Shown piece by piece: positions 1-6,184 of a DNA stretch of 6,184 nucleotides (position 1 is the stretch's first letter; the number at the start of each line of letters is the position of its first letter). Location of the stretch: IMG/VR virus record IMGVR_UViG_3300045988_013197, positions 1 through 6,184 of that record; one strand, 5' to 3'. The notes beneath the pieces were generated by a model. That model was not told the DNA's origin, did no database searches, and saw only the letters and a list, made by a program, of their open reading frames with translations. The translations under genes and the position numbers were made by a program. This DNA comes from a virus.

Positions 1-55
1 CGGATTATATGACATCTGCTGCTAGTGGTTCGGCTAATACCTCTCAATTAAAATC
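1..55. repeat. Terminal redundancy copy 1 (circular-genome overlap), identical to 6130..6184
   Basis: cggattatatgacatctgctgctagtggttcggctaatacctctcaattaaaatc occurs at 1-55 and again, with no mismatch, at 6130-6184. The offset is 6129 nt (divisible by 3), and the capsid reading frame stays open across the junction. Confidence 0.95.
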
Positions 56-1454
56 CGTTCCTTATGTTAATCTGAATCTCATTTCCACACTTCTAAATGG
101 TGCAATTTCCTCGAAGGCTGTTGATGATGCTGGCTTTGGCTATTGCTATGGTGCTTGTAAGATTCTGGATTATCTTGGATATGGAGCGTTTATCGGTTCT
201 GGTAATACAAAAAAAGCGGATATTACCACCCAATATCTAGGTACTTCTTATACTGCTGATTCTCAGAATCCCTTGGTTTTCGGCACTTCTATGGTCGTAA
301 ACTTGCTTCCTGTATTGGCTTATCAGAAGATCTACTTTGATTTTTTCAGCAATTCTCAATGGGAGAAACATTTGGCTTATGCTTATAATGTTGATTATTG
401 GGACGGCACTTCTCCGGTAACTCCTGTTGCTGATATGTTTAAGCTTCGCTATTCCAACTATCCTAAGGATTATTTCCTTGGTGTTCTTCCTAATTCTCAA
501 TATGGCTCGGTAGCTGCTTTGCCGTCTGTTCACTCTCTAACTGATGACTCTAATAAAGTAGTCGTTTTTACTCCTAACTCTTCTCCTTATAATGGCTTAG
601 TTCAGAACGATCCGAATACTTCTAATGTTACTGTTAACAATCAGAATAAATCTGATGTTCGTTATGCGACGCTTAACTCTGACCTCTCCGCTCTTTCAAT
701 CCGTGCAACGGAGTATTTACAGCGCTGGAAAGAAGTAATTCAATTTAGTAGTAAGGACTATTCAGACCAGATGGCTGCTCAGTTTGGCATTAAAGCTCCC
801 GAATATATGGGTAATCATGCTCATTATATTGGAGGTTGGTCTAATGTTATTAATATTAATGAGGTTCTGAATACTAACTTGACTGCTGATAACTCTCAAG
901 CTGTTATTGCTGGTAAAGGTGTTGGTTCTAAGTCTGGTCATGTTATTAATTATGATTGTGGTGCTGAACATCAGGTAATTATGTGTGTATATCATGCTGT
1001 TCCTTTGGTTGACTGGTCCTTGAAAGGTCAGAATCCTCAATTGACTGTAACTGATATTTCTGACTTTCCGCAGCCCGCCTTCGATCAATTAGGTCTGCAA
1101 CCTGTGTCAGCTTTGAATCTTAATAACAGTCCGTCGTCCCCGACTGGTAATATTGGTTATAATTTGCGTTACTGGCAATGGAAGTCTAATGTTGATACGG
1201 TTCATGGAGGTTTCCGTCCCTCTGCTACGTATCAATCTTGGGTCGCTTCTATCCAATCTTCATGGCCTCAGGTTTCAGGCCAGAGTTCGTTTTCTTATCA
1301 GTCGTTTAAGATTCGTCCTCAGCAGATGAACTCTATCTTTGAGCCTCAGATTTCAACTTCTAATTATAGTCTGGCTTTTGATCAGTTGTTGTGTAATGTT
1401 AATTTTCAGGTATATGCTGTGCAGAATCTGGATAGAAATGGTTTACCTTATTAA
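1..1454 (+). CDS. VP1: Major capsid protein VP1/F, C-terminal part (5' partial in this linearisation; first full codon at 3)
   Basis: Open from the window start in the frame of 9..1454, with stop TAA at 1452-1454. It is in frame with 5847..6129 across the 6129-nt circle, giving 1737 nt and 578 aa. It contains the capsid blocks LRYSNYPKDYFLGVLPNSQYG, IRATEYLQRWKE and FGIKAPEYMGNHAHYIGG, which resemble the R..dYF..lP.PQ.G, lR.a.alQ.w.E and FGv...d.rl.RPEylGG motifs of gokusho/alpa-type VP1. Third-position T bias is strong. Confidence 0.93.
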   Translation, partial: DYMTSAASGSANTSQLKSVPYVNLNLISTLLNGAISSKAVDDAGFGYCYGACKILDYLGYGAFIGSGNTKKADITTQYLGTSYTADSQNPLVFGTSMVVNLLPVLAYQKIYFDFFSNSQWEKHLAYAYNVDYWDGTSPVTPVADMFKLRYSNYPKDYFLGVLPNSQYGSVAALPSVHSLTDDSNKVVVFTPNSSPYNGLVQNDPNTSNVTVNNQNKSDVRYATLNSDLSALSIRATEYLQRWKEVIQFSSKDYSDQMAAQFGIKAPEYMGNHAHYIGGWSNVININEVLNTNLTADNSQAVIAGKGVGSKSGHVINYDCGAEHQVIMCVYHAVPLVDWSLKGQNPQLTVTDISDFPQPAFDQLGLQPVSALNLNNSPSSPTGNIGYNLRYWQWKSNVDTVHGGFRPSATYQSWVASIQSSWPQVSGQSSFSYQSFKIRPQQMNSIFEPQISTSNYSLAFDQLLCNVNFQVYAVQNLDRNGLPY

Positions 1455-1470
1455 TTAATTGTGTGTTACT

Positions 1471-1914
1471 ATGAGAAGTTTTGCTTACAAAAATGAAAAT
1501 TTTGTTGAGGATGATTATCGTCCTCAATTAGTAGAAGGTCATCCCTGTTATCAGGCTAGTGTATATGATTCTGTAATGTTGGAAGAAGTATGTGATGATT
1601 CGTTTAAGTTGATGGATATGACTTCTATTCTTTTGAATCAGGAGAAGTATCGTCGTCTTCTCGGTGATATGAATGTACAGAATATCCTTGCCCAGATGCA
1701 TCCTACTCAGTCTACTACTATGGATAGTATGACTGATGAGGAACGTTTTAATTGTGTCATTTCTCGACATTGTCAAACTATTTCTGAAAGGCAAGCTGTC
1801 CTTCAACAATTAGCTAGAGAGAAGTCTGAATTGTCTGCTTTTGCTGAATCTATGTTGGCAGAGACTAAGGCAGCGCCGTCCTCGGATTCCGCATCTGCCT
1901 CTAGCGCTCAATGA
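1471..1914 (+). CDS. Hypothetical 147-aa acidic protein, possibly an internal scaffolding (VP3-like) protein
   Basis: ATG at 1471, preferred over the TTG at 1459 used by the ORF track. It starts 16 nt after the VP1 stop, and its stop TGA (1912-1914) overlaps the next ATG (1911) as ATGA. Codon usage matches the genome. The protein is acidic and ends in a Ser/Ala-rich tail (AAPSSDSASASSAQ). I recognise no diagnostic motif, so the scaffold call rests only on size, charge and its position between the capsid genes. Confidence 0.75.
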   Translation: MRSFAYKNENFVEDDYRPQLVEGHPCYQASVYDSVMLEEVCDDSFKLMDMTSILLNQEKYRRLLGDMNVQNILAQMHPTQSTTMDSMTDEERFNCVISRHCQTISERQAVLQQLAREKSELSAFAESMLAETKAAPSSDSASASSAQ

Positions 1915-3014
1915 TTGGTTCCTTGTTTGGCAGTATGATTAATGCTATGTCGCAGTCCAATGCGAATGCGTCCAATGAATTAATCGCTACACAGAATCGT
2001 CAGGCTGCCCAGCATGAAGCCTATTTGTCTCGGCAATGGCAGAAGTATATGGTTGATTATCAGAATCAGTACAATTCTCCTACTGCTCAGATTGCTCGAG
2101 GTTTGAATCCTTTTGTTAGTTCTACTGGTGCGGGTACTTCTGCTTCTCCTGGTTCTTCTCCTCAGGCTACTATTCCCTCTACTCCTGCTATGCAAGGTGT
2201 CCATGTGGATTTATCTGGTATTGATTCTGCATTGGCGACATTTGCTCAGGCTCGGAAGGCTATTACTGAGTCTAATCAGGTTGAGACTCTTACCCCCCTC
2301 TTAGCTAGAAAAATTATGGGAGACACTGATTATAAGAATATTGGTGTTGGTGAGTCTGGTTATTGGGACTCTAATACTGGTCGTATTTCTGCTGAGCTGG
2401 ACCAGTCTAGAGAGCGTCAGGATCTTGAAAATGCGGTTGCTGCTGGTAAATTGTCTGCGGCTCAGACTTCTCATATTTATTTGCAGGCTGATGCTCAAGC
2501 TATCCTGAATAAATATATGGATGCTCAGCAGCAAGCAGATTTGCTTACAAAAGCCCAGTATCTTTATAACCTTCAACAACAAGGTGCTTTAACCGAGAAG
2601 CAGATTCAAACTGAGCTTCAACGTGCACTCCAGATTGCTGCTCAGACACAAGGTCAGAAAATTTCTAACAACATTGCTTCTGACACTGCTGATGCTCTAA
2701 TATCTGCTACGAATATGGCTTACTATACACAGTATTATGATTCTCTCTGGGATTACAAGAATGTCAACAATCGTAAGAATATGCAGTATTCTAAGGATAA
2801 AGCCATTCGCGATTATTACAAGTGGTCTGCTGGTAATGCCAAGAAAGACTTTGATTCTTATGGCCTGCGCAATGCTATAGACTATACGTCTCGTATTTTT
2901 CAAGGTGCTGGTAATGTAATTGGAGCTATGCGCCCTGGTCCCCAGATTTTCCGTAATGATTACGGTCCTCGTAACACTACTATTTATAATGGTTCTAATG
3001 GTATTGGTTATTAG
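1911..3014 (+). CDS. VP2: Minor capsid / DNA pilot protein (VP2-like, H-like)
   Basis: 367 aa, with its start coupled by an ATGA overlap to the upstream ORF. The N-terminal block ...QNRQAAQHEAYLSRQWQKYMVDYQNQYNSPTAQIARGLNPF resembles the conserved VP2 N-terminus, which ends in a GLNP motif. This is followed by an S/T/P/G-rich linker (about 2120-2195) and then a long Q/A/L-rich predicted coiled-coil. That architecture is typical of microvirus pilot proteins. Confidence 0.8.
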   Translation: MIGSLFGSMINAMSQSNANASNELIATQNRQAAQHEAYLSRQWQKYMVDYQNQYNSPTAQIARGLNPFVSSTGAGTSASPGSSPQATIPSTPAMQGVHVDLSGIDSALATFAQARKAITESNQVETLTPLLARKIMGDTDYKNIGVGESGYWDSNTGRISAELDQSRERQDLENAVAAGKLSAAQTSHIYLQADAQAILNKYMDAQQQADLLTKAQYLYNLQQQGALTEKQIQTELQRALQIAAQTQGQKISNNIASDTADALISATNMAYYTQYYDSLWDYKNVNNRKNMQYSKDKAIRDYYKWSAGNAKKDFDSYGLRNAIDYTSRIFQGAGNVIGAMRPGPQIFRNDYGPRNTTIYNGSNGIGY

Positions 3015-3036
3015 CTGTTAACATACTTTAGGACTA

Positions 3037-3054
3037 AGAGCCCATCACGGCTCT
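3037..3054 (+). other. Stem-loop 1 (6 bp, 6-nt loop)
   Basis: agagcc (3037-3042) pairs perfectly with ggctct (3049-3054). The loop is catcac. Confidence 0.6.
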
Positions 3055-3066
3055 GGAGTGATATAC

Positions 3067-3091
3067 ACCGGCCGCCCGCCTAGGGCCTGGT
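3067..3091 (+). other. Stem-loop 2 (7 bp GC-rich, one bulge, 10-nt loop)
   Basis: accggcc (3067-3073) pairs with ggcc-t-ggt (3084-3091), with t3088 bulged. The loop is gcccgcctag. Confidence 0.55.
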
Positions 3092-3096
3092 ATAAA
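3088..3096 (+). promoter_or_regulatory. Extended -10-like element (TGgTATAAA)
   Basis: tggtataaa at 3088-3096 matches the TGnTATAAT extended -10 pattern in 8 of its 9 positions (5 of 6 in the hexamer). There is no TTGACA-like -35 at the expected spacing. It would start transcription near the base of stem-loop 3. It is of doubtful relevance if the host is Bacteroidota, which uses TAnnTTTG promoters. Confidence 0.2.
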
Positions 3097-3099
3097 ATG

Positions 3100-3135
3100 G
3101 AGCGGAGCGACTTCCTTAGAGAAGCGTTCCGCTTC
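3100..3135 (+). other. Stem-loop 3 (about 14 bp, the longest hairpin in the island)
   Basis: gagcggagcg-a-cttc (3100-3114) pairs with gaag-cgttccgc-t-tc (3121-3135). There are 4 inner bp (cttc/gaag), a bulged a3110, and then 10 bp that include one g3107-t3127 wobble and a bulged t3133. The loop is cttaga. Confidence 0.7.
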
Positions 3136-3161
3136 GGTATTTTAGCACGTAGGTGCGCAAA

Positions 3162-3183
3162 GGCAGGTTCTATCTGACCTGCC
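3162..3183 (+). other. Stem-loop 4 (7-8 bp)
   Basis: ggcaggt (3162-3168) pairs with acctgcc (3177-3183), and an optional t3169-g3176 wobble extends the stem. The loop is ctatct. Confidence 0.7.
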
Positions 3184-3188
3184 GTGCC

Positions 3189-3203
3189 TATACACCCTGT
3201 ATA
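3189..3203 (+). other. Stem-loop 5 (6 bp, 3-nt loop), built from two copies of the TATACA motif
   Basis: tataca (3189-3194) pairs with tgtata (3198-3203). The loop is ccc. Confidence 0.55.
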
Positions 3204-3241
3204 CATCCACTTTGTCATTCAAGCGAAGCCCCTAGTTGTGT

Positions 3242-3275
3242 CCGAAGGAAATTTGAGTTATCATCTCAAATTCGG
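3242..3275 (+). other. Stem-loop 6 (8 bp perfect, plus a 3-bp extension)
   Basis: aatttgag (3250-3257) pairs with ctcaaatt (3265-3272), with loop ttatcat. ccg (3242-3244) can pair with cgg (3273-3275) across a 5-nt bulge, aagga. Confidence 0.7.
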
Positions 3276-3321
3276 CCTCCCCTTGTCCATAAACGCACAA
3301 CTCACACTCTAACCGTAGAAT

Positions 3322-3370
3322 AAAAAAAACTCTGGAATATTTTGTTTATTCGAAAATAATTCTTTCCTTT
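3322..3370 (+). terminator. Possible weak intrinsic terminator (A-tract, AT-rich hairpin, T-rich tail)
   Basis: The A8 run at 3322-3329 is followed by gaatatttt (3335-3343), which pairs with aaaata-a-ttc (3353-3362) as 9 bp with one bulged A. The T-rich tail tttccttt follows at 3363-3370. The stem is all A/T except the closing G-C, so its stability is low. Confidence 0.25.
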
Positions 3371-3422
3371 GCCCCTGTAGAAACCAACTCATTAAATTAT
3401 TAACATTTAAAATCTTACAATT
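3371..3422 (+). promoter_or_regulatory. AT-rich leader or putative promoter region for the downstream operon
   Basis: This is an AT-rich tract immediately upstream of the first gene after the gap. TTTG at 3368-3371 and taaattat at 3393-3400 give only a partial resemblance to the Bacteroidota -33 TTTG and -7 TAnnTTTG elements. The placement is plausible, but the motif match is weak. Confidence 0.2.
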
Positions 3423-3617
3423 ATGCAAAAATTTATTATTTCAGTCAAAGCAAAAGCTACTGGTCATGATGTTGTTCCGCCTTATATTGTCAATTCTCTC
3501 GATGGTCTTGGAACTTATTCTGAGCGAATGTCTCCGTTGGGCTTTATCGTTATTGTGGATTCGATTAAAGAAGAAAATGATTTTGTTTATTTTAAATCTC
3601 AGGACAATGAAAAGTAA
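3423..3617 (+). CDS. Hypothetical 64-aa protein
   Basis: ATG at 3423 and TAA at 3615-3617. The third-position T bias matches the genome (ttt att att ... gct act ggt cat gat gtt gtt). The 3' end overlaps the next start by 11 nt. I recognise no motif, and the protein is not basic, so it is not a J/VP8-like DNA-binding protein. Confidence 0.6.
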   Translation: MQKFIISVKAKATGHDVVPPYIVNSLDGLGTYSERMSPLGFIVIVDSIKEENDFVYFKSQDNEK

Positions 3618-3690
3618 TAATATCTGGAAAATTGTTATTGGCGCTGTTTCTGCTGCTTTAGGTTACATTCTTAATGCTATTGGGCTATGA
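3607..3690 (+). CDS. 27-aa single-pass membrane micro-protein, a holin-like candidate
   Basis: The ATG at 3607 lies inside the last codons of the 64-aa ORF, and the stop TGA (3688-3690) overlaps the peptidase ATG (3687) as ATGA. The peptide is MKSNNIWKIVIGAVSAALGYILNAIGL, a short polar N-terminus followed by an uncharged hydrophobic stretch of about 20 residues. 17 of the 27 codons end in T, matching genome codon usage. If this ORF were not coding, it would leave a 69-nt gap in an otherwise gapless operon. The longer 3466 start in the ORF track is a +1-frame artefact. Confidence 0.55.
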   Translation: MKSNNIWKIVIGAVSAALGYILNAIGL

Positions 3691-3992
3691 ATTACACTCT
3701 TATGCATTTTCTTGAGTACTTGTTGTATTCTAATGCTCATTTTTCTGTAACTAGTGCCAGGCGTACTCCTGAGCAGAATAAAGCTTGCAATGGTGCTCCG
3801 AATTCTCAGCATCTTGTAGGAGAAGCTGTTGATATTAAGCCTTATGGTTCTACTTCGTTTAGTAAGTTGCTCGAAATGATTCATCTTTTTTCTGATAATG
3901 TTTCGCCATTTGACCAGCTTATTATATATCCGACATTTATTCATATTTCGTTCTGTTCCCGTAATCGTCGACAGATAATAGATAAACGTTAA
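3687..3992 (+). CDS. Zinc D-Ala-D-Ala carboxypeptidase-like peptidoglycan peptidase (M15 / LAS superfamily, Peptidase_M15_3-like), a putative endolysin
   Basis: The 101-aa protein contains TSARRTPEQNKACNGAPNSQHLVGEAVDI and a downstream TFIHISF. This fits the family signature (S/T)xxR(S/T)xxxNxxxGGxxxSxHxxGxAxD plus a distal His. The predicted Zn ligands are H42 (3810-3812), D49 (3831-3833) and H86 (3942-3944). No N-terminal signal peptide is evident. Confidence 0.85.
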   Translation: MNYTLMHFLEYLLYSNAHFSVTSARRTPEQNKACNGAPNSQHLVGEAVDIKPYGSTSFSKLLEMIHLFSDNVSPFDQLIIYPTFIHISFCSRNRRQIIDKR

Positions 3993-3997
3993 TACTT

Positions 3998-5830
3998 ATG
4001 AAATATTCGCCAGAATTGCTTAAAGCTGCTGATTGTTGTCAGCATCGCTCATTTATTACCAACAAATATACGGGTAAGCGTATCGCTGTAGATTGCGGTC
4101 AATGCGATCACTGTATCCACAAGCGAGCTCAAAAGGCGTCTATGCGTGTGAAGACCGCTGGAAGTGCCTTCGAACATTGTTGGTTTGTTACGCTCACCTA
4201 TGATAATGAGCACATTCCGTTGTTTAATTGCGAGGTGTACTGCTCCGAATATGACGATGTTTTAAGTGATTCTGGCGTTGTTCATGGCTATGAAAAACAT
4301 TCTTATATTCCTGTTTCTGACTATCAACCTGAGGATTCTTCCCTTTTACGTCATATATTCTTCACGCAAGTTCAAGGTACAGTGCCGTTTGACCGTGAGA
4401 ACAAGGAATATGTTCCTGTTAAGGATAATTGGTTTCTTAGCATGGATGCTATTCGTAGTTTTATTCGTAAAACGCAGGCCGTTGACAATTCAGTCTATCC
4501 CGTTGCTGAAAAATACGGTGTTGATAACCTTATACCCTTTCTGAATTATGTTGATGTTCAGAATTATATTAAACGCTTACGTAAATATTTATATCAAGTT
4601 TTAGGTTCTTATGAAACGTTACACTTCTACGCTGTGGGTGAATACGGACCAGTCCATTTCCGCCCGCATTATCATATCTTATTATTCTCAAACTCGGAAA
4701 AAGTCTCAGCGGTATTACGACAGTGTCATGATAAGAGTTGGAAATTCGGTCGTTCAGATTTCCAGATTGCCCGTGGTGGAGCTTCATCATACGTTGCGAG
4801 TTATGTTAACAGCCTTAGTTCTGCTCCCTTATTATATCGAGCATGCAACTCATTTAAACCCCGACAAAGAGCGTCTCTTGGATTTTTTGAAAAAGGCGAG
4901 GTTTACGAGGAAGGTGAAGACGTCTATCATGCGATTGAGCAAAAAATCGATTCTGTCATTAATGGCCGAGTCTATAACTTCAACGGGATTAGTGTTAAAT
5001 CAACTCCCCCCTTGTCGTATATCCGTACCTTATTGCCCCGATTCTCAAGTGCTCGCTATGACGATGCTGTTGCGATTGCTAGAATTATTCGAGCTGTTGC
5101 AGATGCGCCAAAAAGAATCGCAAGGTTTGGTATTATAGATTATAATTCCGATTCTACCCTTTCTATTGTTCGTGCTTATTATCAATATATTACTTTAAAT
5201 CATCATTTAACCAATGAAGATGAAATTGTTTTACATTCTGCTCGGTGTCTTACTAGGCTCTGTAACAGTTCTTCTGATGTCGATATTAAATCTTATATTA
5301 ATAAGTTATATCGGCTATTCCTTTATGTCAGTAAGTTCCTTAGGAATTGGCATCTGCCTCCCATCGGTGGTAATCTTGATTCTTATGCCAATCGTATTAA
5401 TTTTATCATTAAAACAGGTATAGAGTATGAGAAAAAAGCGGACTATGTACGAATGTGTGATTCGTTGCGAATACAAGAAACATGTGAATTCCCTTTATTG
5501 CGATATTTTTACTTACCAGCCTCAGGATGTGAGGTGTCGACCGTTAAGGAGGAGAAAGACGGAACATTTTCCACGTACACTATTCGAGACAGAATGGCAG
5601 GAATCAAACCCACCATCTTACACTTTGATGACCCCCGAAAATTATTACTTTCCCCAGCTCTTTCTCGTTTGGTCGGATCATCCTTTAAAGCCTCGCAACC
5701 TGCAAATTACAACGATTTGTGCGACGACTTACAAAGGTGTCTGGATAACCGTGCATCGACGTTCTGCCGTGATATGATTAAACATAAGAAGCTAAATGAC
5801 GCTAATAATATATTTAACCGTATGGTCTAA
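3998..5830 (+). CDS. VP4: Rolling-circle replication initiator (HUH endonuclease; VP4 / gene A-like), unusually large at 610 aa
   Basis: The N-terminal Cys cluster is CC-x18-CGQCDHC. Motif 1 is FVTLTY (4184-4201) and the HUH motif is HYHILLF (4667-4687). The catalytic double-Tyr motif YVASYVN (4790-4810) is nearly identical to the phiX174 A protein active site YVAKYVNK. The gene starts 5 nt after the peptidase stop. Confidence 0.93.
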   Translation: MKYSPELLKAADCCQHRSFITNKYTGKRIAVDCGQCDHCIHKRAQKASMRVKTAGSAFEHCWFVTLTYDNEHIPLFNCEVYCSEYDDVLSDSGVVHGYEKHSYIPVSDYQPEDSSLLRHIFFTQVQGTVPFDRENKEYVPVKDNWFLSMDAIRSFIRKTQAVDNSVYPVAEKYGVDNLIPFLNYVDVQNYIKRLRKYLYQVLGSYETLHFYAVGEYGPVHFRPHYHILLFSNSEKVSAVLRQCHDKSWKFGRSDFQIARGGASSYVASYVNSLSSAPLLYRACNSFKPRQRASLGFFEKGEVYEEGEDVYHAIEQKIDSVINGRVYNFNGISVKSTPPLSYIRTLLPRFSSARYDDAVAIARIIRAVADAPKRIARFGIIDYNSDSTLSIVRAYYQYITLNHHLTNEDEIVLHSARCLTRLCNSSSDVDIKSYINKLYRLFLYVSKFLRNWHLPPIGGNLDSYANRINFIIKTGIEYEKKADYVRMCDSLRIQETCEFPLLRYFYLPASGCEVSTVKEEKDGTFSTYTIRDRMAGIKPTILHFDDPRKLLLSPALSRLVGSSFKASQPANYNDLCDDLQRCLDNRASTFCRDMIKHKKLNDANNIFNRMV

Positions 5831-5846
5831 TTTAAATTAATTAATT

Positions 5847-6184
5847 ATGAGTGATTTTAATCCGCTAGACCGAGCGAAAGTTGCCGTTCATCGCTCCTCC
5901 TTTGACTTGTCTAGTAAAAAATTATTTACGGCAAAAATTGGAGAGATCCTTCCTTGTTATTGGCAGATTGCTATTCCTGGTAACAAGTATCGTATCTCTT
6001 CTGACTGGTTTACTCGTACTGTTCCCGTTAATACGGCCGCATATACCCGTATTAAGGAGTATTATGATTTCTATGCTGTGCCGTTACGTTTAATTTCTCG
6101 TGCCCTTCCACAGGCATTTACTCAAATGACGGATTATATGACATCTGCTGCTAGTGGTTCGGCTAATACCTCTCAATTAAAATC
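5847..6184 (+). CDS. VP1: Major capsid protein VP1/F, N-terminal part (runs off the window end and continues at 56 through the circular junction)
   Basis: ATG at 5847, 16 nt after the Rep stop, with no stop codon to the window end. My translation is MSDFNPLDRAKVAVHRSSFDLSSKKLFTAKIGEILPCYWQIAIPGNKYRISSDWFTRTVPVNTAAYTRIKEYYDFYAVPLRLISRALPQAFTQMTDYMTSAASG... The RSSFDLS, G-x-LP, PG-x and FYAVPLRLI blocks match the conserved N-terminus of Microviridae major capsid proteins (compare Chlamydia-phage VP1 RSSFDRS...PGD...FFVPLRLIW). This ORF is absent from the supplied track only because it has no in-window stop. Confidence 0.93.
   Translation, partial: MSDFNPLDRAKVAVHRSSFDLSSKKLFTAKIGEILPCYWQIAIPGNKYRISSDWFTRTVPVNTAAYTRIKEYYDFYAVPLRLISRALPQAFTQMTDYMTSAASGSANTSQLK
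6130..6184. repeat. Terminal redundancy copy 2 (circular-genome overlap), identical to 1..55
   Basis: Exact 55-nt copy of the window start. This implies a 6129-nt circular molecule that was linearised inside the capsid gene. Confidence 0.95.

Follow-up and report, generated by a model that had tools for sequence, protein, structure and literature searches.

We propose that a 27-residue membrane peptide, referred to here as TM27, and the peptidase encoded directly after it form a minimal two-component lysis module in a microvirus; judged from sequence, this reading is given a probability of about 0.6. The window, that is the whole stretch of 6,184 nt that was analysed, is the complete circular genome of a gut microvirus, 6129 nt plus a 55-nt terminal repeat. 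Microvirus lysis is usually told from phiX174, in which one small protein acts with no wall enzyme and timing depends on host growth. Protein E of phiX174, 91 aa long, is read in another frame from a gene wholly inside gene D; its target is MraY, and no muralytic enzyme takes part. An earlier note on this DNA had described a cassette of three translationally coupled genes resembling a holin/endolysin module. The present analysis retains the peptide and the enzyme, and sets the first of the three genes, o64, apart from them.

The coordinates of the features are given in Table 1. The three ORFs are chained by overlaps exactly as the earlier note had placed them (11 nt at 3607, ATGA at 3687-3690), and the position it gave them, between a non-coding island and Rep, is borne out by 408 nt without long ORFs upstream of o64 (3015-3422) and by a Rep start at 3998. 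The comparison set consisted of 82 genomes (the window, 4 GenBank records and 77 IMG/VR contigs). o64, TM27 and the peptidase are all intact in 82/82, and this intact arrangement is far beyond chance. The spacing of -11/-4 nt was found in 66 of the 82 genomes. Taken singly, the o64/TM27 spacing is -11 nt in 67, -14 in 8, -8 in 5 and +4 in 2, the ATG of TM27 being fixed and the o64 stop shifting. The ATGA junction of TM27 and the peptidase is present in 81/82 genomes and also in Dulem viruses 238, 226, 243 and 241. The overlaps had been offered as a sign of coupling; however, every gene of this genome abuts or overlaps its neighbour, and the peptidase and Rep of the relatives are likewise abutted or overlapped by 4 nt. 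Such tight packing is general in microviruses and thus makes the overlaps weak evidence for functional coupling. The AT-rich leader before o64 is a possible promoter, translation leader or Rep site, and its motif recurs before the peptidase ATG in bajarodmic virus 1034.

Table 1. Features of the lysis-candidate locus in the window
Feature	Position	Strand	Remarks
o64 ORF	3423..3617	+	ATG 3423, TAA 3615-3617; 64 aa
TM27 ORF, MKSNNIWKIVIGAVSAALGYILNAIGL	3607..3690	+	ATG 3607, TGA 3688-3690; 27 aa
M15_3 peptidase ORF	3687..3992	+	ATG 3687; 101 aa
o64/TM27 overlap, 11 nt	3607..3617	+	direct sequence reading
TM27/peptidase ATGA stop/start overlap	3687..3690	+	direct sequence reading
Candidate 74-aa long form	3466..3690	+	TM27 frame from upstream ATG in o64
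Zone with reduced synonymous change, o64 codons 15-46	3465..3560	+	dS by segment
AT-rich conserved leader, ATTATTAAC...TTACAATT, directly before o64 ATG	3396..3422	+	columns conserved in 45-genome alignment

TM27 is a genuine gene on which purifying selection is very strong, and its product is a predicted single-pass membrane peptide. Nei-Gojobori estimates revealed purifying selection on all three genes, with dN/dS of 0.36 for o64 and 0.19-0.24 for the peptidase (dS 0.79), TM27 being the most constrained (0.09 overall, 0.07-0.08 in non-overlapping codons, dS 0.63). A dN/dS of 0.07-0.09 with dS of about 0.6 indicates conservation at the protein level. There are 78 distinct nucleotide sequences of TM27 among 81, their variation is 3-periodic (entropy 0.23/0.07/0.66 at the codon positions), and nearly all TM residues are conserved across the 82 genomes. 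The peptide begins with a polar, basic, Lys/Asn-rich segment, MKSNNIWK, and continues as a hydrophobic helix some 19 residues long, the mean Kyte-Doolittle hydropathy being -1.26 for residues 1-8 and 2.01 for residues 9-27. It has no proline, is charged only at K2 and K8, and ends within the hydrophobic helix (...LNAIGL). On reading the sequence, small residues (G12, S15, A16, G19, G26) are found at a pinholin-like spacing.

TM27 resembles a holin in being a small phage protein with a TM helix whose gene lies beside an endolysin gene. Holins typically carry a charged C-terminal tail; TM27 is without the hydrophilic, charged C-terminal domain of the holin class and, at 27 aa, is smaller than any canonical large-hole holin that we know of. 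The earlier note had proposed profile searches of each ORF, and these placed the peptidase in PF08291 and PHROG 894 and returned no family for TM27 or o64. A holin family match was found neither for the 27-aa peptide nor for the 74-aa form in Pfam, PHROG or NCBIfam, and the peptides of other lineages gave holin-family hints at E of about 0.1 only. GenBank records PP511855, PP511333, OP549867 and MG945572 carry no CDS annotation at the 84-nt TM27 gene. Common gene callers apply a floor of 90 nt to the ORFs that they report.

The 101-aa peptidase is, by its sequence features, a signal-less zinc peptidase of the M15_3/LAS type and a homologue of endolysins; it is regarded here as a candidate endolysin with a predicted muralytic role. 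It matches Pfam PF08291 (Peptidase_M15_3) with an E value of 1.2e-9 and 38.7 bits against a gathering cut-off of 23.2, residues 18-87 being aligned with profile positions 42-107 of 108, and PHROG 894 ('endolysin') with an E value of 6.6e-14. PF08291 is present in all 120 peptidase homologues among the matches listed. The zinc-ligand signature H-x6-D ... H is found as S40-Q41-H42-x2-G45-x-A47-x-D49 with H86, and the substrate-binding Arg of the S-x-x-R motif lies in S23-A24-R25-R26. Across 16 diverse relatives, the most distant at 66% identity, residues R26, S40-Q41-H42, G45, D49 and H86 do not vary, and R26, H42, D49 and H86 align with the same residues in the endolysins of Stenotrophomonas phage Siara (44% identity) and Bacteroides phage BS-TP2 (38%). 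The nearest non-microviral relatives are annotated endolysins, the tblastn matches including those of Stenotrophomonas, Xanthomonas, Burkholderia, crAss-like and Bacteroides phages, and the gene already bears the label 'peptidase' in GenBank relatives. The AF2 model (pLDDT 88) has an amphipathic helix at the N-terminus (H4-14). When this model was compared with the PDB by Foldseek nothing was found at E<=0.001 (VanY 5hnm appeared at E 1.2 only), and a profile search of PDB sequences gave nothing at E<=0.01. The peptidase has no TM, SAR or signal segment, its maximum 17-residue hydropathy being 1.02 at residue 75. Without a signal peptide or SAR segment, it would be expected to accumulate in the cytoplasm and to depend on a lesion in the membrane. 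A SAR-type fusion of TM segment and peptidase, as the 124-aa 'peptidase' of GenBank in Dulem viruses 238, 226 and 243 might suggest, was rejected on translation. The 21-codon N-terminal extension is a non-hydrophobic read-through in the peptidase frame that overlaps a separately framed TM28 ORF, and the TM ORF of these viruses encodes 28-29 aa in another frame with the usual ATGA junction.

The pairing of peptide and enzyme is recurrent. A TM27 match was found by tblastn in 35 GenBank phage records, and the peptidase abuts it in all 35. A motif scan of 2.9 million IMG/VR contigs gave 74 genuine TM27/TM28 ORFs, and 72 of the 74 genomes carry an M15 peptidase. A short single-pass peptide together with an M15 peptidase occurs in at least six microvirus lineages with differing gene orders, and beyond the clade of the window the TM peptide adjoins the peptidase in four lineages. 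Dulem viruses 238, 226 and 243 have the TM ORF joined to the peptidase by the ATGA overlap. In bajarodmic viruses 410 and 1134 and Dulem virus 257 the peptide has 29 aa, its ORF lies 3 nt upstream of the peptidase gene, and the enzyme shares about 50% identity with that of the window. The peptide of bajarodmic virus 1034 has 31 aa and is encoded 25 nt ahead of the peptidase, which in this virus came from dsDNA phages in a separate acquisition. In the oral clade of D_HF4_111, 7/7 loci encode a peptide of 28-29 aa; its ORF is 500-600 nt upstream of the peptidase, with another small TM ORF and a structured spacer in between, and in pig microviruses a 29-30-aa peptide lies downstream of the peptidase in all nine records checked. 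According to PMC9239249, the MAGs MG945328 and MG945336 belong to different families, with 21% VP1 identity. They share a published recombinant stretch of 766 nt at 76% identity; the blastn match takes in the peptidase and, at its near end, the initial 56 nt of the TM ORF, which is 90 nt long. Their TM peptides are 69% identical over the full length. No relatives of the MG945328 peptidase were found in IMG/VR. The TM peptides of distant lineages are only 15-41% identical, so that their common ancestry is uncertain, and small hydrophobic ORFs readily appear in T-rich genomes like these.

Loss of the enzyme was also observed. In L224 (complete, 5958 nt) and L245 the peptidase is cleanly absent and TM27 is intact with synonymous differences. 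Thus the pair is not obligate, and TM27 appears as its core element. Of the earlier reading as a holin/endolysin-like module, the signal-less M15_3 enzyme, the conserved TM peptide and their recurrent pairing stand. The synteny survey that it had suggested recovered co-occurrence of TM peptide and peptidase across lineages, and found o64 bound to one clade. Contig L133, which carries the peptidase, was discarded as a three-fold concatemer, and L132 (24.7 kb) is probably chimeric, because the TM27-peptidase-Rep segment alone matches the window. No integrated copy or host was found in a scan of 185,579 species genomes, in which the best cellular homologues of the peptidase reached at most 42% identity and came mostly from Bacteroidota, with other phyla also represented.

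The first gene, o64, encodes an acidic, soluble product with a pI of 5.1, for which the AF2 model (pLDDT 74) gives three beta strands. Its family has 2604 members, every one of them on contigs of about 6 kb, and contains no Pfam domain. An exhaustive profile search of 1.84 billion representatives returned only 49 short representatives of its own family. Outside that family there was no match in Pfam, PHROGs, NCBIfam or, by Foldseek, the PDB, and BFVD gave its own family only, in agreement with the earlier statement that the 64-aa protein has no recognisable function. In the bajarodmic 410 clade the place of o64 is taken by a 57-aa ORF, and homology of the two was rejected (hhalign probability 0.1%). 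Since o64 is confined to one clade and unrelated small ORFs take its place elsewhere, the three-gene cassette reduces to a two-gene pair, and o64 is probably a clade-specific neighbour outside the lysis pair.

The synonymous sites of o64 are unusual. By codons, dS is 0.68 for 2-14, 0.25 for 15-27, 0.13 for 28-46 and 0.45 for 47-61, and its minimum lies below every 19-codon window of Rep (Rep minimum 0.17, median 0.62). At four-fold sites of this zone the third-position purines are frozen and the first positions of o64 vary. Thus P19 is written CCG, TCG or GCG and gives R in the +1 frame in 59/59, L39 is written TTG, CTG or ATG and gives W in 59/59, and V45 is GTG in 59/59. An RNA structure behind the freeze was considered and rejected, as the consensus fold of the 249 columns has 2 covarying pairs and reaches only -11 kcal/mol, and folding of a single sequence gives a z-score of +1.27. 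The frozen sites may instead mark an overprinted protein. In most relatives the TM27 frame stays open upstream as far as an ATG about 46 codons away, and a frame of the 74-aa type has been called by gene callers in 206 database proteins. It is possible, and on balance rather unlikely, that this protein of 73-74 aa, read from 3466-3690 in the +1 frame of o64, is the real membrane component, with TM27 as a short form from an internal start. From its N-terminus on it would have a hydrophobic domain, a loop rich in Lys and then the helix of TM27, and the two forms would make a holin/antiholin-like pair in one frame. In favour of this, the dS of o64 falls five-fold from the in-frame ATG on, through 0.68, 0.25 and 0.13, and rises again to 0.45 where the loop is predicted; read in the +1 frame, the unusual purines give R, W, W, E and E; and the dip, for which no RNA structure accounts, is deeper than in any Rep window. 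However, Rep itself has dips nearly as deep. Synonymous randomisation of one sequence gave a 5.7% chance of an open +1 frame, but conserved openness was dropped as evidence for the long form, because long +1 stretches of Rep are equally stop-free in 92-100% of relatives. Stops interrupt the long form in L041, L083 and L084, and its ATG is missing in L016, L024 and L027. In L084 the +1 stop is a TAG that arises from TTA at codon 26, a change silent in o64. Members of the bajarodmic 410 clade have an extension that is short, not conserved or interrupted, that of Dulem virus 238 is little conserved, and synonymous changes that create a stop are not depleted relative to other transversions. This zone of o64 also contains a TTATTG repeat of iteron-like type, which makes a DNA element an alternative to the long form.

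The two-component reading, in which TM27 and the peptidase act together, would work as follows. TM27 would accumulate late in infection in the cytoplasmic membrane, with its N-terminus inside according to the positive-inside rule. It could oligomerise through its small-residue face (G12/A16, S15/G19 and the heptad G12-G19-G26), and the oligomers would breach or depolarise the membrane. The folded cytoplasmic peptidase would then get to the peptidoglycan and cut the peptide cross-links, and the cell would burst. The overlaps may couple translation of TM27 and the peptidase to the upstream ORF and thereby fix their ratio. TM27 is probably the primary, timing-determining effector and the peptidase an accelerator, because one lineage lost the enzyme and kept the peptide. 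The pore helix of pinholin S21-68 of phage 21 relies on a small-residue/glycine-zipper face, and the small residues of TM27 are comparably spaced. Pinholes release only membrane-tethered SAR endolysins; the peptidase, being free of SAR and TM segments, would not get out through a pinhole alone. Several points speak against the module: the pair is not obligate; the peptide has no holin-family match and no charged C-terminal tail, and is very small for a holin; peptide and enzyme lie apart in the D_HF4_111 clade; the TM peptides of distant lineages have little sequence in common; the peptidase model has no significant PDB match; and an outer-membrane component (spanin) is lacking.

The closest parallels are the holin-endolysin cassettes of BS-TP2 (gp5/gp6) and Siara (gp26-30), in which, as here, a signal-less M15_3 endolysin stands beside a small membrane protein. 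In BS-TP2 the holin precedes the endolysin with the same 4-nt stop/start overlap, and in Siara the endolysin gene is followed by two holin/antiholin genes and spanins. These holins are larger (149 aa in BS-TP2, 104-124 aa in Siara) and have several TM segments, whereas TM27 has 27 aa and one helix, and no antiholin or spanin genes are recognisable beside it. The window peptidase lacks about 30-40 N-terminal residues of its dsDNA-phage relatives, and the window is a 6.1-kb ssDNA microvirus, unlike the dsDNA phages BS-TP2 and Siara.

It is also conceivable, and unlikely, that TM27 alone is the lysis effector or a membrane toxin, which would block wall synthesis as E does or collapse the membrane potential and free autolysins, the peptidase being an accelerator acquired horizontally at a later time. 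This would agree with L224 and L245, which retain TM27 under selection without the enzyme, with the loss of the enzyme once and of TM27 never, and with the near-complete conservation of TM residues, which fits binding to a specific partner. Several horizontal entries of M15 peptidases into microviruses, as described in PMC3394797, point in the same direction. Against this, the TM27-type motif is almost confined to peptidase-bearing genomes (72/74), and an inhibitor of wall synthesis would not provide the lesion in the membrane on which a signal-less wall enzyme still depends. The comparison with E, also a small microviral membrane peptide and one in which the TM helix is the functional part, is apt if TM27 acts alone. 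The function of E needs a proline, and TM27 has none. TM27 also differs from E in having its own coding space except for 11+4 nt and in being paired with a peptidase; E-type lysis genes are embedded in another gene and work without a muralytic enzyme, and L224 and L245 share the second of these features only.

Dense packing of unrelated accessory genes, by which the adjacency of TM27 and the peptidase would have no functional meaning, is improbable. All genes here are abutted or overlapped, distant TM peptides are weakly similar, and the co-occurrence within one clade (35/35, 82/82) could follow from descent alone, but the pairing recurs with different gene orders and independently acquired peptidases, and one recombined stretch common to two families holds the peptidase and most of the TM ORF. 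Very improbable is a virion-associated entry role of the peptidase, a case that the earlier note had named as refuting lysis; the enzyme would open the wall for entry of the DNA, and TM27 would do other work, for example exclude superinfecting phages or anchor replication or assembly. Gp7, a wall hydrolase of the microvirus Ebor, is present in virions, but in trace amounts only (PMC11980548), the homologues of the window enzyme are lysis-cassette endolysins and not virion proteins, its loss in L224 and L245 would abolish entry if it were required, and the repeated pairing with a TM peptide would be left unexplained.

The enzyme half of the proposed module has a history. An endolysin role for the M15_3 peptidases of Alpavirinae and Gokushovirinae was proposed in 2012 by Roux et al. 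(PMC3394797), and Kirchberger et al. counted microviral M15_3 peptidases among lysis-associated accessory genes in 2022 (PMC9239249). The family, the type of virus and the proposal of wall dissolution at the end of infection are the same as here, so that the contrast with phiX174 drawn in the earlier note was not new. In their passages on these peptidases an adjacent 'unknown ORF' is mentioned in 5/11 cases and a conserved small TM peptide is not described (PMC3394797, PMC9239249). The peptide partner alone is therefore new, the proposal of a microviral M15 endolysin dating from 2012. Activity of another type of microviral wall hydrolase was demonstrated in 2025 (PMC11980548). This is Gp7 of Ebor (Tainavirinae), which also encodes a 45-aa predicted membrane protein, Gp1, and which is likened to the present pair by description; Ebor differs in having an alphaproteobacterial host, and neither a role nor a pairing was proposed for Gp1 (PMC11980548).

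Gut microviruses are among the most abundant human-associated phages. As a tentative generalisation, held at somewhat less than even odds, the peptides of 27-31 residues could be the membrane-breaching partners of M15 endolysins in many gut and oral microviruses, the clade of the window perhaps having a 74-aa form in addition. They would have remained unannotated because the shortest of them fall below the 90-nt floor of gene callers. Routine annotation systematically overlooks TM27, which is better conserved than all the neighbouring genes. If the generalisation is true, these peptides would be the smallest known holin-type proteins, TM27 and its 101-residue endolysin would be among the smallest lysis systems known, and the possible 74-aa form overprinted on o64 would give the clade of the window a holin/antiholin-like pair. 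More speculatively, TM27 and the 101-aa enzyme could serve as compact lysis or antibacterial parts for Bacteroidota. The ssDNA phages were said in 2025 to be without a membrane holin and a peptidoglycan hydrolase (PMC11946311). If the generalisation above is true, timed two-component lysis would be widespread in ssDNA phages and would move between microvirus families as a module.

The best-supported reading of the locus, to which we assign a probability of roughly 0.6, is that TM27 (the 27-aa membrane peptide) and the peptidase form a minimal two-component lysis module. An earlier note had proposed a lysis cassette of three genes. The peptide and enzyme part of that proposal is supported, whereas nothing ties o64 (the 64-aa ORF) to lysis, and it is treated here as a neighbouring clade-specific gene. 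All three ORFs were confirmed at their positions, as were the ATG of TM27 11 nt inside the end of o64 and the ATGA joining TM27 to the peptidase. The 55-nt direct repeat at the two ends is identical, which indicates that the window is a complete circular genome with a true length of 6129 nt. As the capsid gene begins before the window end, the ORF at the window start is its 3' part only. The closest GenBank records, at most 82-86% identical over the aligned parts, were microviruses from lemur, dog and human faeces (Dulem viruses 237-255, MG945572, OP549867).

Coordinates of genes and other features in the window
Feature	Position	Strand	Remark
Direct terminal repeat	1-55, 6130-6184		55 nt
Phage_F major capsid gene	starts ~5846		crosses circle junction
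Capsid gene, 3' part	9-1454		
151-aa gene			between capsid and pilot-protein genes in listed order
Pilot-protein gene	1911-3014		
Stretch without long ORFs	3015-3422		408 nt; G+C 0.50 over 3015-3320, ~0.39 elsewhere in genome
Structured island	3023-3333	+	
AT-rich motif	3396-3422		directly before o64 ATG in window's clade
o64	3423-3617	+	64 aa
Putative long form of TM27	3466-3690	+	74 aa
Iteron-like repeats	~3481-3492, ~3541-3557		in frozen zone of o64
TM27	3607-3690	+	27 aa
Peptidase	3687-3992	+	101 aa
Rep gene	starts 3998		610 aa
Rep-internal ORF	4611-5138	+	175 aa, +1 frame of Rep

Of the three ORFs TM27 is under the strongest constraint, and it is a genuine gene. Relatives were gathered through the peptidase and comprised 80 IMG/VR loci (95 relatives were found, with peptidase identity of 66-95%) and four GenBank genomes; 82 genomes, the window included, had upstream sequence available. 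All three ORFs were intact in 82/82, with overlaps of -11/-4 nt in 66 and the ATGA junction in 81 of the 82. It was found that 81 TM27 genes have 78 different nucleotide sequences and an almost invariant protein (consensus IWKI[VI]IGA[VI]SAALGY[IV]LN[AS]IGL). This variation, mostly at third codon positions (entropy by position 0.23/0.07/0.66), and the low dN/dS (0.09 overall, 0.07-0.08 outside the overlaps, dS ~0.6) identify it as a gene; dN/dS was 0.19-0.24 for the peptidase and 0.36 for o64. TM27 is unannotated in all GenBank relatives examined, where a 69-nt gap separates the 'hypothetical protein' from the 'peptidase'. At 84 nt, TM27 falls short of the 90-nt minimum of the most widely used gene caller for prokaryotes, which would explain the omission. 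Searches of Pfam, PHROG and NCBIfam gave no family match for it. A segment 86% identical to window 3564-5910 (TM27, peptidase and Rep) was also seen in a 24.7-kb Logan contig (SRR29466483, L132), among dsDNA-phage-like genes (dUTPase, D5_N/DUF5906 primase, Bro-N) with no capsid gene nearby and with the TM27 frame fused to an unrelated upstream ORF. This contig is probably a chimeric assembly, a real hybrid being the alternative.

The peptidase passes the Pfam threshold for Peptidase_M15_3 and matches PHROG endolysin family 894. Its R26, S40-Q41-H42...D49 motif and H86 do not vary among relatives of 66% identity or more, and they align with the same residues in annotated dsDNA-phage endolysins. 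It is 44% identical to the endolysin gp26 of Stenotrophomonas phage Siara, whose cassette continues with two holin/antiholin genes and an i-spanin/o-spanin pair, and 38% identical to the endolysin gp6 of Bacteroides phage BS-TP2, which follows a 149-aa holin with a 4-nt overlap. The microviral enzyme is a shortened form: the 30-40 residues with which its relatives begin are missing, and its own N-terminus is not hydrophobic, in agreement with its earlier description as signal-less. The AlphaFold model is compact and confident (pLDDT 88). No significant solved structure was found by Foldseek or by sequence profile, so the LAS-fold assignment is based on sequence motifs. In the Dulem viruses 238, 226 and 243 (L117-L119; PP511332, PP511534, PP511322) the annotated start of the 'peptidase' CDS is 21 codons too early, and the CDS runs across a separately framed TM ORF. 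The peptidase of Dulem 243 and 241 (PP511885, L130) carries the GenBank label 'hypothetical protein'.

Within the window's clade TM27 and o64 each match 35 GenBank phage records with identical organism and host breakdowns, and every TM27 match abuts a peptidase; such perfect co-occurrence is uninformative on linkage beyond common descent. All IMG/VR contigs were scanned for exact matches to the N-terminal motif MK.NN[IVM]WK, which gave 74 genuine TM27/TM28 ORFs, 72 of them with an M15 peptidase in the same genome. A TM peptide and a peptidase recur together in other lineages, where o64 is absent or replaced. In Dulem 238, 226 and 243 (peptidase ~60% identical) an ATGA junction links a TM ORF of 28-29 aa to the peptidase. 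In Bajarodmic 410 and 1134 and Dulem 257 (~50% identical) the TM ORF MKSETKSKIWSAIIAAAVSLLTSIAQIFS ends 3 nt before the peptidase and is preceded by a 57-aa ORF unrelated to o64. Bajarodmic 1034, whose 162-aa peptidase has its nearest relatives in 40-70-kb dsDNA phage contigs, has a 31-aa TM ORF ending 25 nt upstream of it. The oral D_HF4_111 clade shows MKK.NVWKLVLQIAVSALTALATALGV. in 7/7 loci, then a second small TM ORF; the peptidase is 500-600 nt downstream. In pig microviruses a 29-30-aa TM ORF lies downstream of the peptidase in 9/9 examined records (of 13), starting inside the 3' end of the peptidase or after a 45-47-aa ORF. Four of these pig viruses (L281-L284; MT135378, MT135359, MT135399, MT135368; locus 377-998) have the order peptidase, 45-47-aa ORF, 29-aa TM ORF and Rep; there is an 8-nt overlap of the small ORF with the TM ATG, and the TM frame continues open through the small ORF in the upstream direction (72-75 aa), an arrangement that mirrors o64/TM27 in an unrelated lineage.

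Kirchberger et al. (PMC9239249) describe MG945328 and MG945336 as genomes of different families (21% VP1 identity) with a common recombinant region of ~700 nt around the peptidase. We found 766 nt in common at 76% identity, comprising a spacer on the upstream side, the peptidase and, of the 90-nt TM ORF, the first 56 nt, so that the exchanged stretch contains the greater part of the TM ORF along with the enzyme gene; the two full-length TM peptides are 69% identical. This shared stretch, together with the pairing in different gene orders, is the strongest available argument that the two may function jointly. The TM peptides of the most distant lineages agree in architecture, with many Lys residues in the head and many Ala, Ser, Gly, Ile and Leu residues in the helix, yet they are only 15-41% identical, so their common ancestry is not established.

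The earlier view that o64 has no recognisable function agrees with our searches. Its family contains ~2600 database proteins, all on ~6 kb contigs and with no domain. No match was found in Pfam, PHROG or NCBIfam, and an exhaustive profile search of 1.84 billion representatives gave only 49 short proteins, all of its own family. Structure prediction gave a small beta protein with three strands (pLDDT 74), for which PDB had nothing similar and BFVD only its own family. The TM27 frame is open upstream into o64, giving a hydrophobic 74-aa ORF that is sometimes reported by gene callers. This openness is worthless as evidence for a long form, as all long +1 stretches in Rep are equally open (92-100% of 74 relatives) because third codon positions are 52% T. 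Synonymous sites of o64 are partly frozen: dS is 0.68 at codons 2-14, 0.25 at 15-27, 0.13 at 28-46 and 0.45 at 47-61, as against 0.63 in TM27 and 0.79 in the peptidase; the lowest 19-codon window of Rep has 0.17 (median 0.62). At several four-fold sites atypical purines are kept in 58-59 of 59 genomes, with variation at the first base of that o64 codon, and they preserve R, W, W, E and E in the +1 frame. This zone showed no RNA structure. The dS drop at codons 15-46 and the frozen purines fit a long form of TM27 overprinted within o64; it is nevertheless doubtful, as its frame has stops in three genomes, the upstream ATG is missing in some, the extension is not conserved in more distant clades and an iteron-like TTATTG repeat lies in the same zone. 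The iteron-like repeats there are CTTATATTGT and a second one, which reads CTTATTGTTATTGTGG in the consensus and CTTTATCGTTATTGTGG in the window; they are an alternative cause of the constraint.

Inside Rep a basic ORF (pI 10) was observed in the +1 frame, present from ATG to stop with 175-196 aa in 75/75 relatives and with a conserved start M[KRN]RY[IT][SF]TL. Its mean protein identity is 0.71 vs 0.82 for Rep over the same stretch, and dS of Rep falls to 0.18-0.42 at codons 221-270 and 331-360 within it. Like phiX174 B or K within gene A, it may be overprinted. Its openness by itself is no proof, as 92-99% of relatives also keep the other long +1 stretches of Rep open; Pfam and PHROG gave no match. 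The island upstream of o64 is highly structured: 296 nt of it have an RNA minimum free energy of -102 kcal/mol (z = -5.0; 0/200 shuffles as stable). Its hairpins are kept in 27 relatives with compensatory changes in 18/44 pairs (GC13/CG8/AU4 at one, UA20/CG7 at another), and neither an Rfam family nor a tRNA was found in it. Possible roles are a complementary-strand origin for the packaged ssDNA and a structured RNA. Microvirus D_HF4_111 (L124) has a comparable G+C-rich spacer, placed between its TM ORFs and its peptidase. In the unrelated bajarodmic virus 1034 (L125, 1068-1092) the AT-rich motif, ATTATTAAC(N)..TTACAA(N)T, stands before the ATG of the peptidase as well. Candidate functions of this motif are those of a promoter, a leader or a Rep site; the TTATTAAC in it resembles the phiX174 origin core, ATATTAATAAC.

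The contrast drawn earlier with phiX174 lysis is valid, and it is not new. Roux et al. (2012, PMC3394797) report M15_3 peptidase genes in 11 human-associated microviruses, show their horizontal acquisition and propose an endolysin role; Kirchberger et al. (2022, PMC9239249) list peptidases as lysis-associated accessory genes; and microvirus Ebor (PMC11980548) encodes a 45-aa membrane protein and a wall hydrolase whose activity was shown by experiment. Judged by the searchable literature, the new elements are a conserved TM peptide that annotations omit, its repeated occurrence with peptidases in different lineages, the position of most of its gene inside a stretch recombined between families, the synonymous-site freeze in o64 and a lineage without the enzyme.

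In that lineage, L224 (IMGVR_UViG_3300045988_000161) and L245, TM27 is present and the peptidase gene is cleanly missing. L224 is a complete circle (5958 nt, 99-nt terminal repeat) with all other genes intact, and both have the order o64, TM27, a common spacer of ~60 nt and Rep. Their closest relatives carry the peptidase; no further members were found in IMG/VR. TM27 differs between the two at synonymous positions, which indicates that it is kept under selection without the enzyme. The main rival, that TM27 brings about lysis by itself and the peptidase only speeds it up, fits this lineage; we consider it unlikely. An entry role of the peptidase, whose dsDNA-phage homologues are endolysins in classical lysis cassettes, and mere gene packing, with the pairing seen in different gene orders, are less likely still. 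In the two-component module TM27 would insert into the inner membrane, its N-terminus presumably toward the cytoplasm (from K2, K8 and the positive-inside rule), self-associate via its small-residue face and breach or depolarise the membrane, and the cytoplasmic peptidase would then gain access to murein. TM27 lacks two classical traits of holins, a charged C-terminal tail and a match to a holin family; hence it may work like a holin, with no claim that it belongs to a holin family. The enzyme is dispensable in nature, and disruption of TM27 was never found among the relatives examined. Since the enzyme can be lost and the peptide is not, TM27 is probably the primary effector of the module.
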